Positions 22,255-41,446 of a stretch of 43,746 nucleotides of DNA are shown piece by piece. The translations under genes were made by a program, and so were the position numbers. This DNA comes from a virus (Duplodnaviria > Heunggongvirae > Uroviricota > Caudoviricetes): IMG/VR virus record IMGVR_UViG_2636416110_000005; one strand, 5' to 3'. The notes below the pieces were generated by a model that was not told where the DNA came from, made no database searches, and saw nothing but the letters and a program-made list of their open reading frames with translations. How positions within the stretch are numbered: position 1 is the first letter of the stretch; every line of letters begins with the position of its first letter.

Positions 22255-22453
22255 GAGGTTGCCCCGTATTCAGTGTCGCTGATTTGTATTGTCTGAAGTT
22301 GTTTTTACGTTAAGTTGATGCAGATCAATTAATACGATACCTGCGTCATAATTGATTATTTGACGTGGTTTGATGGCCTCCACGCACGTTGTGATATGTA
22401 GATGATAATCATTATCACTTTACGGGTCCTTTCCGGTGATCCGACAGGTTACG

Positions 22454-22465
22454 GGGCGGCGACCT
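22454..22465 (+). other. cos: cosN cohesive-end site (GGGCGGCGACCT), lambda-type
   Basis: 22390..22640 matches the remembered lambda right-end/left-end junction (…CCGACAGGTTACG|GGGCGGCGACCTCGCGGGTTTTCGCTATTTATGAAAATTTTCCGG…) almost base for base, including cosB up to the Nu1 start. Confidence 0.85.
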
Positions 22466-22642
22466 CGCGGGTTTTCGCTATTTATGAAAATTTTCCGGTT
22501 TAAGGCATTTCCGTTCTTCTTCGTCGTAACTTAATGTTTTTATTTAAAATACCCCCTGAAAAGAAAGGAAACGACAGGTGCTGAAAACGAGCTTTTGGGC
22601 CTCTGTCGTTTCCTTTCTCTGTTTTTGGCCGTGGAATGAACA

Positions 22643-23188
22643 ATGGAAGTCAACAAAAAGCAGCTGGCTGACATTTTCGGTGCGAGTATCCGTACCATTC
22701 AGAACTGGCAGGAACAGGGAATGCCCGTTCTGCGAGGCGGTGGCAAGGGTAATGAGGTGCTTTATGACTCTGCCGCCGTTATAAGATGGTATGCCGAAAG
22801 GGATGCTGAAATTGAGAACGAAAAGCTGCGCCGGGAAGTTGAAGAACTGCGGCAGGCCAGCGAGACAGATCTCCAGCCAGGGACTATTGAGTACGAACGC
22901 CATCGACTTACGCGTGCGCAGGCCGACGCACAGGAGCTGAAAAATGCCAGAGACTCCGCTGAAGTGGTGGAAACCGCATTCTGTACTTTCGTGCTGTCGC
23001 GGATCGCAGGTGAAATTGCCAGTATTCTCGACGGGATCCCCCTGTCGGTGCAGCGGCGTTTTCCGGAACTGGAAAACCGACATGTTGATTTCCTGAAACG
23101 GGATATCATCAAAGCCATGAACAAAGCAGCCGCGCTGGATGAACTGATACCGGGGTTGCTGAGTGAATATATCGAACAGTCAGGTTAA
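22643..23188 (+). CDS. nu1: terminase small subunit Nu1
   Basis: 181-aa ORF MEVNKKQLADIFGASIRTIQNWQEQGMPVLRGGGKGNEVLYDSAAV...; lambda Nu1 length and sequence. Confidence 0.95.
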   Translation: MEVNKKQLADIFGASIRTIQNWQEQGMPVLRGGGKGNEVLYDSAAVIRWYAERDAEIENEKLRREVEELRQASETDLQPGTIEYERHRLTRAQADAQELKNARDSAEVVETAFCTFVLSRIAGEIASILDGIPLSVQRRFPELENRHVDFLKRDIIKAMNKAAALDELIPGLLSEYIEQSG

Positions 23189-37343: not shown

Positions 37344-37912
37344 AAACGGGGGCTGAAGCCATCCGCGCACTGGCCACACAGCTCCCGGCGTTTCGTCAGA
37401 AACTGAGCGACGGCTGGTATCAGGTACGGATTGCCGGGCAGGATGTCAGCACGTCCGGATTAACGGCGCAGTTACATGAGACTCTGCCTGATGGCGCTGT
37501 GATTCATATTGTTCCCAGAGTCGCCGGGGCCAAGTCTGGTGGTGTATTCCAGATTGTCCTGGGAGCAGCCGCCATTGCCGGATCATTCTTTACCGCCGGA
37601 GCCACCCTTGCAGCATGGGGGGCAGCCATTGGGGCCGGTGGTATGACCGGCATCCTGTTTTCTCTCGGTGCCAGTATGGTGCTCGGTGGTGTGGCGCAGA
37701 TGCTGGCACCGAAAGCCAGAACTCCCCGTACACAGACAACGGATAACGGCAAACAGAACACCTATTTCTCCTCACTGGATAACATGGTTGCCCAGGGCAA
37801 TGTTCTGCCTGTTCTGTACGGTGAAATGCGCGTGGGGTCACGCGTGGTTTCTCAGGAGATCAGCACGGCAGACGAAGGGGATGGTGGTCAGGTTGTGGTG
37901 ATTGGTCGCTGA
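37241..37912 (+). CDS. I: tail assembly protein I
   Basis: 223-aa ORF, lambda gpI length; Gly/Ala-rich hydrophobic C-terminal half. Confidence 0.9.
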   Translation: MAATHTLPLASPGMARICLYGDLQRFGRRIDLRVKTGAEAIRALATQLPAFRQKLSDGWYQVRIAGQDVSTSGLTAQLHETLPDGAVIHIVPRVAGAKSGGVFQIVLGAAAIAGSFFTAGATLAAWGAAIGAGGMTGILFSLGASMVLGGVAQMLAPKARTPRTQTTDNGKQNTYFSSLDNMVAQGNVLPVLYGEMRVGSRVVSQEISTADEGDGGQVVVIGR

Positions 37913-37972
37913 TGCAAAATGTTTTATGTGAAACCGCCTGCGGGCGGTTTTGTCGTTTATGGAGCGTGAGGA

Positions 37973-40900
37973 ATGGGTAAAGGCAGCAGTAAGGGGCATA
38001 CCCCGCGCGAAGCGAAGGACAACCTGAAGTCCACGCAGCTGCTGAGTGTGATCGATGCCATCAGCGAAGGGCCGGTTGAAGGTCCGGTGGACGGATTAAA
38101 AAGCGTGCTGCTGAACAGTACGCCGGTGCTGGACAGTGAGGGGAATACCAATATATCCGGCGTCACGGTGGTGTTCCGGACCGGTGAGCAGGAGCAGTCA
38201 CCGCCGGAGGGATTTGAATCCTCCGGCTCCGAGACGGTGCTGGGTACGGAAGTGAAATATGACACGCCGATCACCCGGACCATCACGTCGGCAAACATCG
38301 ACCGTCTGCGCTTTACCTTCGGTGTACAGGCACTGGTGGAAACCACCTCAAAGGGGGACCGGAATCCGTCGGAAGTCCGCCTGCTGGTTCAGATACAGCG
38401 TAATGGTGGCTGGGTGACGGAAAAAGACATCACCATTAAGGGCAAAACCACCTCGCAGTATCTGGCCTCGGTGGTGGTGGATAACCTGCCGCCGCGCCCG
38501 TTCAATATCCGGATGCGCAGGATGACGCCGGACAGCACCACAGACCAGCTGCAGAACAAAACGCTCTGGTCGTCATACACCGAAATCATCGATGTGAAAC
38601 AGGGCTACCCGAACACGGCACTGGTCGGCGTGCAGGTGGATTCGGAGCAGTTCGGCAGCCAGCAGGTGAGCCGTAATTATCATCTGCGCGGGCGTATTCT
38701 GCAGGTGCCGTCGAATTATAACCCGCAGACGCGGCAATACAGCGGTATCTGGGACGGAACGTTTAAACCGGCATACAGCAACAACATGGCCTGGTGTCTG
38801 TGGGATATGCTGACCCACCCGCGCTACGGCATGGGGAAACGTCTTGGTGCGGCAGATGTGGATAAATGGGCGCTGTATGTCATCGGCCAGAATTGCGACC
38901 AGTCGGTGCCGGACGGCTTTGGCGGCACGGAGCCGCGCATTACCTGTAATGCGTACCTGACCACACAGCGCAAGGCGTGGGATGTGCTCAGTGATTTCTG
39001 CTCGGCGATGCGCTGTATGCCGGTATGGAACGGGCAGACGCTGACGTTCGTGCAGGACCGACCGTCGGATAAGGTGTGGACCTATAACCGCAGTAATGTG
39101 GTGATGCCGGATGATGGCGCGCCGTTCCGCTACAGCTTCAGCGCCCTGAAGGACCGTCATAATGCCGTTGAGGTGAACTGGATTGACCCGAATAACGGCT
39201 GGGAGACGGCGACAGAGCTTGTGGAGGATACGCAGGCCATTGTCCGTTACGGTCGTAACGTCACGAAGATGGATGCCTTTGGCTGTACCAGCCGGGGGCA
39301 GGCGCACCGCGCCGGGCTGTGGCTGATTAAAACGGAACTGCTGGAAACGCAGACCGTGGACTTCAGCGTGGGTGCGGAAGGGCTTCGCCATGTACCGGGG
39401 GATGTCATTGAAATCTGCGATGATGACTATGCGGGTATCAGCATCGGCGGGCGCGTGCTGGCGGTGAACAGCCAGACCCGGACGCTGACGCTCGACCGTG
39501 AAATCACGCTGCCATCCTCCGGTACCACGCTGATAAGCCTGGTTGACGGAAGTGGCAATCCGGTCAGCGTGGAGGTCCAGTCCGTCACCGACGGCGTGAA
39601 GGTAAAAGTGAGCCGTGTTCCTGACGGCGTTGCCGGATACAGCGTGTGGGGGCTGAAGCTGCCGACGCTGCGCCAGCGCCTGTTCCGCTGCGTGAGTATC
39701 CGTGAGAACGATGACGGCACGTATGCCATCACCGCCGTGCAGCATGTACCGGAAAAAGAGGCCATCGTGGATAACGGGGCGCACTTTGACGGCGACCAGA
39801 GCGGCACGGTGAATGGTGTCACGCCGCCAGCGGTGCAGCACCTGACTGCCGAAGTCACCGCAGACAGCGGGGAATATCAGGTACTGGCCCGCTGGGACAC
39901 GCCGAAGGTGGTGAAGGGGGTGAGCTTTATGCTTCGCCTGACCGTGGCAGCGGATGACGGCAGTGAGCGGCTGGTCAGCACAGCCCGGACGGCGGAAACC
40001 ACATACCGCTTCACACAACTGGCGCTGGGGAACTACAGGCTGACAGTCCGGGCAGTAAATGCGTGGGGGCAGCAGGGCGATCCGGCATCGGTATCGTTCC
40101 GGATTGCCGCACCGGCAGCGCCGTCGCAGATTGAGCTGACACCGGGGTATTTTCAGATAACCGCCACGCCGCATCTTGCGGTTTATGATCCGACGGTACA
40201 GTTTGAGTTCTGGTTCTCGGAAAAGCGGATTGCGGATATCAGGCAGGTTGAAACCAGCGCGCGCTATCTTGGCACGGGGATGTACTGGATAGCCGCCAGT
40301 ATCAATATCAAACCGGGCCATGATTATTACTTTTATATCCGCAGTGTGAACACCGTTGGCAAATCGGCATTCGTGGAGGCTGTCGGTCAGGCGAGCGATG
40401 ATGCGGAAGGTTACCTGGATTTTTTCAAAGGCCAGATAACCGAATCCCATCTCGGCAAGGAGCTGCTGGAAAAAGTCGAGCTGACGGAGGATAACGCCAG
40501 CAAACTGGAGGAGTTTTCGAAAGAGTGGCAGGACGCTAACGATAAGTGGAATGCCATGTGGGGCGTCAAAATTGAGCAGACCAAAGACGGCAAACATTAT
40601 GTCGCGGGTATTGGCCTCAGCATGGAGGACACGGAAGAAGGTAAGCTGAGCCAGTTTCTGGTTGCCGCTAACCGTATCGCGTTTATTGAACCGGCAAACG
40701 GGAATGAAACGCCGATGTTTGTGGCGCAGGGCAATCAGATATTTATGAACGACGTGTTCCTGAAGCGCCTGACGGCCCCGACCATTACCAGCGGTGGAAA
40801 TCCACCGGCATTTTCCCTGACATCAGACGGAAAGCTGACCGCTAAAAATGCGGATATCAGTGGCAGTGTGAATGCGAACGCCGGGACGCTCAACAATGTC

Positions 40901-41446
40901 ACGGTAAATGAAAACTGTACGATTAAGGGCATGCTGGAGGCGACTCAGGTCAGAGGTGACTTCGTTAAAGCTGTATCCAAATCATTCCCGAAACAGGCTG
41001 GTACGTGGGGTAATACGGAAACACCAAACGGGACGGTTACAGTCACCATCAGCGATGATCATAACTTTGACCGTCAAATCATTATTCCGCCCATTATCTT
41101 TAACGGAATAGCGTATAGCGATCCGGGAAGTGGTAATAACCCGGGAGGTACAAGATACACGGGTTATGGTTTTGAAGTTCGCAAAAACGGTGTATTAATC
41201 GCATCCAGAGAAACTAAAGGGGCCATTCCCGGTAGCTACAGTGCGGTTATTGATATGCCGAGTGGCAGGGGAAGCGTCACTCTGGAGTTTAAGGTTTTCC
41301 ATAAAGGCAATCAGCGGGCAGGTAATATCACCGACTGTACGGTGATTGTGACCAAAAAAGCGGCTTCTGCGTATTTTCATGAAAGGAGATCACTCAATAA
41401 CTTCCATCGAGATCGGGTAATAACATTTGAACAGATCGCTGAATAA
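37973..41446 (+). CDS. J: tail tip/host specificity protein J
   Basis: 1157-aa ORF (lambda gpJ is 1132 aa); the last codons run into a 21-bp inverted repeat next to the IS21-like element. Confidence 0.9.

Follow-up and report, generated by a model that had tools for sequence, protein, structure and literature searches.

In a published survey, prophages at the Qin site of Escherichia coli range from 11 to 97 kb, and the larger ones carry capsid, tape-measure and host-specificity genes (PMC6379469). The element analysed here is of this known kind, as it is the full-length form of what E. coli K-12 MG1655 retains as the “Qin” remnant (NC_000913.3 1632277-1652745), and it is an ordinary, catalogued E. 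coli prophage. The stretch of DNA in question, referred to below as the window, is the whole of the virus record IMGVR_UViG_2636416110_000005 with its 43,746 nucleotides. We think, with a probability of roughly 0.85 and judging from sequence comparison, that it holds almost all of a lambdoid prophage of about 50 kb that belongs to the Qin lineage and resides in E. coli JA65 at the site of K-12 Qin, between rspB and ydfJ. Exactly this sequence is publicly available, its architecture is widespread and is also that of a deposited phage, and elements of this type are textbook material; the element was thus already known.

K-12 Qin occupies the same site and is more than 99.9% identical in the segments that it retains, also at the stf/tfaQ/pinQ end, but it lacks everything from window position 23172 into stf, which removes A to J as well as lom. 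The Qin-site prophage of strain G6/7 (NZ_CP060061.1) is of full length and comprises the left arm, Nu1 to J, lom, stf, tfaQ, pinQ, ydfK, ynfT, a truncated ydfJ and a copy of the insertion sequence (IS) ISEc12. It differs from the window in that ISEc12 lies in lom and not in J, that H and J are intact and that stf is a pseudogene, and its structural arm is 95.8-98.6% identical. The phage PhiR42_1 (PV340562.1) has the same layout, with a Qin-type left arm, cos, lambda-type Nu1 to J, lom and stf. Nine substitutions and no insertion or deletion (indel) separate its left arm from that of the window (1-22100), whereas its structural arm represents another set of alleles (about 96-99% identical, 86-91% at the 3' end of J), with intact H (853 amino acids), intact J and no ISEc12. 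A literature search found no publication on PhiR42_1 or the PhiR phage series.

The assignment to strain JA65 is based on contig JMJD01000003.1 of the PacBio assembly GCA_000714975.1, to which exact matches of two predicted proteins, the J fusion and the H ORF of 837 amino acids, had led; this contig is 100% identical to window 27973-43746, save for 117 bp that are absent from the window. JA65 is a blood isolate from a urosepsis patient and was sequenced with PacBio and Illumina (PMC4271156). In the JA65 source assembly the prophage measures about 50.4 kb with the IS and about 47.8 kb without it, and to the right of the IS it continues with intact lom (199 amino acids), stf (1024 amino acids) and tfa (191 amino acids), followed by pin, ydfK, ynfT and ydfJ. 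Proteins of lambda lom, stf and tfa have no match in the window itself (tblastn), because the window ends inside the IS. On the rspB side the window begins 18 nt inside the K-12 Qin boundary, and identical left arms adjoin rspB in other genomes, including the O55:H7 strain USDA5905, where they are annotated with Qin gene names. The right prophage end in the JA65 assembly adjoins a ydfJ-type transporter gene of the major facilitator superfamily. A tRNA scan found no tRNA genes in the window.

Origin of the lambda-type late region

The original prediction described the window as a mosaic lambdoid phage in which a lambda-type cos and morphogenesis module is joined at cos to a Qin-type early half. 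Both kinds of sequence are found. The early half agrees with K-12 Qin to more than 99.9% over 1-1179, 3364-6851 and 11651-23171, and the alignment to lambda (NC_001416, blastn) covers 22092-40942 at 95.4-98.3% nucleotide identity with a gap of about 200 bp inside H only. Low identity to lambda across the structural region, which would speak against such a module, was not observed; cosQ and cosN are identical to lambda, and Nu1 to J show 95-97% nucleotide identity. The supposed junction at cos, however, did not hold up. Homology to K-12 Qin runs through cos and Nu1 up to 23171, 17 nt short of the Nu1 stop codon and without a mismatch over 20500-23171, and the homology to lambda starts 362 bp left of the nick. 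The region contains the following features.

22092-22453, plus strand: homology to the right end of lambda (blastn), including cosQ (GGGTCCT, 22424-22430) and the left half of cosN
22454-22642, plus strand: 12-nt cohesive end GGGCGGCGACCT (22454-22465), then cosB, which includes the terminase R sites, as far as the start of Nu1
22643-23188, plus strand: terminase gene Nu1 (nohA in Qin), by tblastn
23163-25088, plus strand: terminase gene A, by tblastn

The nick at cos falls between 22453 and 22454, and identity to lambda is complete from -200 to +53 around it. Window 22092-22453 corresponds to lambda 48141-48502 with 98.3% identity. Within cosB, substitutions relative to lambda are found at +54, +73, +102 and +134, together with one 1-nt indel near +139, and K-12 Qin is identical to the window across the entire 22454-22642. 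Both terminase proteins are full length, with 98.3% (Nu1) and 99.2% (A) identity to lambda. The span of 22390-41446 that had been assigned to the module begins 64 bp left of the nick and includes cosQ, but its right end is the stop codon of a fusion between J and the IS, the native part of J ending at 41367. A weaker match to lambda (window 21534-22037 to lambda 47023-47527, 84%, blastn) falls into the ydfO (DUF1398) region, which matches lambdap78, and extends this weaker homology almost 1 kb to the left of cos. Left of 21534/22092, the window is unrelated to lambda at the search sensitivity used.

K-12 Qin is a single-deletion derivative of this prophage type. It equals the G6/7 prophage minus a single block of 22,932 bp that starts at the 3' end of Nu1 and ends within stf, and the flanks are 99.95-99.99% identical. 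As K-12 Qin has retained cos, Nu1 and stf/tfa, its lineage possessed the module before the K-12 deletion. Among 5,426 complete E. coli genomes, there are 607 in which the Qin late region runs on without interruption into a lambda-type terminase. The run of K-12 Qin through cos and Nu1, the single-block deletion relative to G6/7, these 607 genomes and the layout of PhiR42_1 together argue that the lambda-type module is the native late region of the Qin lineage. The opposition of “Qin versus lambda” is a false one, since in Qin-type prophages of full length the late region is itself of the lambda type, and K-12 Qin is what a deletion left of such a prophage. The significance of this beyond annotation is small.

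We regard it as unlikely that the window instead represents a recent hybrid, in which recombination near cos gave a Qin-type element a foreign structural cassette of the lambda type and the two halves therefore differ in origin. The two arms do behave differently. The left arm is near-clonal, as K-12, O55:H7, PhiR42_1 and hundreds of genomes agree in it to 99.9-100% (100% in many of them, with four to nine differences from O55:H7 and PhiR42_1 over 22 kb), whereas the structural arm is 1-5% off every relative; its best complete-genome match reaches about 98% overall and 99.2% over G-H, where about 36 other differences from the nearest genome remain. The divergence from relatives around cos starts at 22335 for PhiR42_1, at 22507 for O55:H7 and at about 23000 for G6/7, which indicates repeated allelic exchange of the module. 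This exchange, however, takes place between alleles of the same lambda-type module and brings in no new module type; Nu1 to J is found at this position in every full-length relative examined, and K-12 Qin keeps cos and Nu1 without mismatch as well as the stf/tfa end. The staggered divergence points and the clonal left arm fit a native late region whose alleles were repeatedly exchanged among lambda-like prophages. The description as a mosaic can therefore be kept for a signal of allele exchange within the module, but not for the capture of a lambda-type module.

A more tentative suggestion, to which we give somewhat less than even odds, is that Qin may be a still-circulating lineage rather than an ancient grounded relic, with its left arm spreading in E. 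coli and swapping structural alleles with resident lambda-like prophages. The 22-kb left arm is near-clonal (at least 99.9%) between K-12, O55:H7, JA65 and PhiR42_1, and the structural cassettes are 2-5% apart between copies. If this suggestion is true, JA65 and K-12 would represent successive stages of decay, first by point mutation and IS insertion and then by a 23-kb deletion, and K-12 Qin would be reconstructible from living relatives.

Conservation of the head and tail genes

Right of the nick, the window aligns to lambda in two pieces, 22454-33976 to lambda 1-11527 with 97.05% identity and 34179-40942 to lambda 11712-18474 with 95.4% identity. With tblastn, all 21 lambda proteins from Nu1 to J (Nu1, A, W, B, C, Nu3, D, E, FI, FII, Z, U, V, G, T, H, M, L, K, I and J) are found in lambda order, full-length and with 87-100% identity. 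Apart from the terminase genes and from H and J, which are described further below, the corresponding genes are located as follows.

25085-25291, plus strand: W, head gene
25288-26889, plus strand: B, head gene
26870-28189, plus strand: C, head gene, with nested Nu3 at 27584-28189
28199-28531, plus strand: D, head gene
28587-29612, plus strand: E, head gene
29654-30049, plus strand: FI, head gene
30061-30414, plus strand: FII, head gene
30426-31004, plus strand: Z, tail shaft/chaperone gene
31001-31396, plus strand: U, tail shaft/chaperone gene
31404-32144, plus strand: V, tail shaft/chaperone gene
32160-32582, plus strand: G, tail shaft/chaperone gene
32564-33022, plus strand: T frame, tail shaft/chaperone gene
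35567-35896, plus strand: M, tail tip gene
35896-36594, plus strand: L, tail tip gene
36600/36744-37343, plus strand: K, tail tip gene
37241-37912, plus strand: I, tail tip gene

The head genes from 25085 to 30414 are full length, with open reading frames (ORFs), a preserved start context of Nu3 and 87-99% protein identity to lambda. Protein identity is 96-100% for the tail shaft and chaperone genes (30426-33022) and 95-99% for the tail tip genes, which are likewise full length. The slip site of G/T, GGGAAAG, is kept at 32558-32564 (lambda 10109) and constitutes the predicted -1 frameshift signal for the formation of G and GT. With lambda, the window thus has cosQ, cosN, cosB, the order from Nu1 to J, the G/GT slip site and the nested C/Nu3 arrangement in common.

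The original prediction had stated that gene order, lengths and many residues match lambda and that a full head and tail gene set is present. Order and identity agree with this, and all 21 genes are there, but the lengths deviate for H, which has a stop at its third codon, for T, which is eight codons longer, and at the end of J. A full set in the sense of open reading frames is not found, since H contains this ochre stop, J is interrupted by ISEc12 and the stop codon of T is lost.

The segment of about 200 bp within H that interrupts the alignment to lambda (33977-34178) is also left unaligned by most lambda-like phage records (megablast/blastn). Its allele is present in some E. coli genomes, with a single-piece match of 99.2%, and this part of the tape-measure gene appears to be variable.

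Lesions in H and J and the predicted phenotype

Two lesions distinguish the late region of JA65. They concern the following features.

32991-35570, plus strand: tape-measure gene H, with TAA at codon 3 (32997-32999), by translation and alignment; 89% protein identity to lambda
37973-41446, plus strand: tip attachment gene J, native up to 41367 (residue 1132), with Pfam J domains including Ig_GpJ_C
41368-43746, plus strand: ISEc12 (IS21 family), left terminus TGCGTATT at 41368, istA remnant at 41669-42985 and istB from 42997 to the window end

H contains the Pfam domains TMP_2 and Tape_meas_lam_C. At position 32997, the window has a T where lambda and all relatives have a G, so that H reads ATG GCT TAA. 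Because H and T overlap, this change acts twice, as it also turns the TGA stop codon of T into TTA, through which T and GT gain eight residues (RYG LTGRRSGR, followed by a stop). The T allele was not found at any of the 4,179 places in 3,487 complete genomes or in the 81 phage records that match a 76-nt stretch around it, all of which are one base off, and it was also absent from 185,579 species-representative genomes. Among the collections searched, it is private to JA65. The truncated H product occurs on three contigs in total, including one in the JA65 PacBio assembly, in which both the H stop and the IS in J are found as in the window. As the window and this assembly differ by the 117-bp indel, at least two assemblies carry both lesions.

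The second lesion is located at the very end of J. ISEc12 displaces the last five codons (GISIR and the stop), and 25 IS-encoded codons take their place, with the fusion ORF ending at 41446. The termini of ISEc12 were defined from two other copies, according to which the IS starts exactly at 41368, and the ORFs right of J were identified as IstA and IstB (Pfam rve, Mu-transpos_C_2 and IstB_IS21). In the JA65 assembly, the IS has a length of 2,581 bp and is flanked by a 5-bp target duplication, GCTTC, after which GGCATCAGTATTCGTTGA follows as the rest of J. The event is a simple transposition into J. The junction between J and ISEc12 is found in no complete genome. A 375-bp deletion that would have fused J to a lom fragment beside ISEc12 was also considered and is ruled out by the IS termini, the target duplication and the presence of the J remainder and an intact lom right of the IS.

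The receptor-binding end of J is not of the LamB-specific lambda type. Over residues 1-985, identity to lambda J is 96%, but over residues 986-1132 it is only 40%, while this end is 95.9% identical to J of phage 434 (OL657226.1), whose full J is 96.5% identical to the window J. Phage 434 J keeps the GISIR end, whereas the window J carries the 25 IS-encoded residues instead. The C-terminus of J sets host specificity, and 434 J directs binding to OmpC (PMC11101478). From this 434-type end we infer that the ancestral receptor was OmpC rather than LamB.

The workings of the prophage can be sketched by analogy with lambda biology. DicA would repress the lytic genes, and derepression would allow int and xis to excise the prophage. 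The O-like protein would then start replication, and the Q-type antiterminator YdfT would turn on lysis and late genes. The Nu1/A terminase would cut cos and fill proheads, to which B, C/Nu3, D and E contribute, and Z, U, V, G/GT, H, M, L, K, I and J would form the tails. Lambda cannot assemble its tails without H, and as H ends at codon 3 in JA65, tails are not to be expected there, the altered GT and J being a further risk. We therefore consider it probable that the phenotype is tail-defective and that no infectious particles would arise. The prophage would be competent for lysis and would produce heads, and functional tails could form only if a co-resident lambda-like prophage supplied H and J. 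The JA65 copy has, to judge from these lesions, begun to decay by one base change and one IS insertion. For the scoring of prophage intactness by gene content this calls for caution, as all structural genes are 87-100% identical to those of lambda, yet two small lesions probably abolish tail assembly.

That the prophage is a mosaic phage which can be induced and is functional throughout, its head and tail genes being complete and working, seems very unlikely to us, since the TAA at codon 3 lies in an essential tail gene and its allele is found in none of the 81 phage records and none of the 3,487 complete genomes, as expected if it is deleterious. Such a phage would be in accord with the presence of all 21 morphogenesis genes, the intact cos and a left arm that appears intact and is near-identical to that of PhiR42_1, but the damage to H and J is not what a viable temperate phage would show. 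The genome of about 50.4 kb including the IS is still within the packaging limit of lambda. Only five residues of J are lost, but its receptor-binding domain ends in a foreign tail of 25 residues. The next in-frame start of H, ATG at 33057 (Met23), opens an ORF of 837 amino acids, but is preceded by only a weak Shine-Dalgarno-like GAG.

Some points nevertheless weigh against the tail-defective, Qin-lineage interpretation that we prefer. Re-initiation at Met23 might yield an H without its first 22 residues, and the J fusion might retain its function. That the other two contigs with the truncated H are an independent confirmation by Illumina is likely, and the viability of PhiR42_1 is taken from its GenBank record, which lists a host.

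Errors of PacBio RS assemblies are mainly indels and not substitutions. It is highly improbable that the H stop or the 117-bp difference in the IS arose from faulty sequencing or assembly and that the prophage is intact but for the IS, even though the 32997 allele is private to JA65 and the 117-bp mismatch shows at least one assembly error or differing sequenced stocks, because the truncated H occurs on three contigs, window and PacBio contig alike have T at 32997, JA65 was sequenced by both PacBio and Illumina (PMC4271156), and a private substitution is not unusual next to the roughly 36 other differences from the nearest complete genome.

As to the 117 bp themselves, the window copy of ISEc12 lacks them at 41616/41617, in the 5' region of istA that encodes the predicted DNA-binding N-terminus, and the resulting junction creates a TAA stop codon. 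The segment is present in the JA65 PacBio assembly (L009, 13645-13761), and the difference is either an assembly discrepancy or reflects a non-autonomous copy of the IS. Other copies of ISEc12 were seen in lom of the G6/7 Qin-site prophage (L005, 28335-30912), with the target duplication CCGCT, and in the chromosomal ypfH of strain NIPH17_0036 (L007, 3518-6084), with the target duplication CCTTG. The J-lom region of Qin-type prophages was thus struck by ISEc12 at least two times, independently.

Gene content of the left arm

The left arm (1-22091, no strand assigned) was characterised by its identity to rspB-adjacent prophages with RefSeq annotation, to K-12 Qin and to PhiR42_1, supplemented by Rfam and PHROG matches. 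It provides for integration, DicA/DicC immunity, O-like replication, Q-type antitermination (ydfT) and lysis. The gene groups of the arm are given below.

Left part: int, xis, RecE-like exonuclease, ydfD, dicB, DicF, ydfC/B/A, dicA (repressor) and dicC (cro-like)
Replication region: cII-like gene, O-like replication gene, Ren-like/DUF977 gene, methyltransferase fragment, sok-like RNA and ISNCY transposase remnant
Following genes: flxA, relBE, hokD, rem, ydfU, ydfT (Q-like antiterminator) and cspF/B
Right part: lysis cassette essQ-ydfR-rrrQ-rzpQ, cspI, gnsB, ydfO and ynfO

The order dicA/C/B, DicF, relBE, hokD, ydfU, ydfT, csp genes, essQ-rrrQ-rzpQ, gnsB, ydfO, ynfO and nohA is that of the Qin lineage. 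DicF is found at 4774-4825 on the minus strand (Rfam), and the O-like, cII-like and Ren-like genes are matched by PHROG. Many complete E. coli genomes contain prophages that match window 1-22390 with 100% identity, and in 550 genomes at least 80% of this span is covered. The segments shared with K-12 Qin amount to about 69% of 1-22390, and the rest is deleted in K-12. One of the missing segments, 1180-3363, reflects an IS2-associated loss in int, xis and exo, where K-12 has an IS2 remnant; the other, 6852-11650, comprises the replication region with the cII-like, O-like, Ren-like and methyltransferase genes and the IS remnant.

Two full-length thermoregulator leaders of the cspA type were detected with Rfam at 17294-17686 and 20196-20581, upstream of the prophage genes cspB and cspI, and cspF is a third cold-shock gene on the opposite strand. 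A match to the sok antitoxin RNA (Rfam, 104 bits) lies at 10277-10448 on the plus strand, just upstream of the remnant of an ISNCY-family transposase gene at 10522-11835 on the same strand. The 4.8-kb stretch 6852-11650 with the sok match and the ISNCY remnant is absent from K-12 Qin. Although the neighbouring ORFs are frameshifted pseudogenes according to RefSeq, this stretch is present in phage PhiR42_1.

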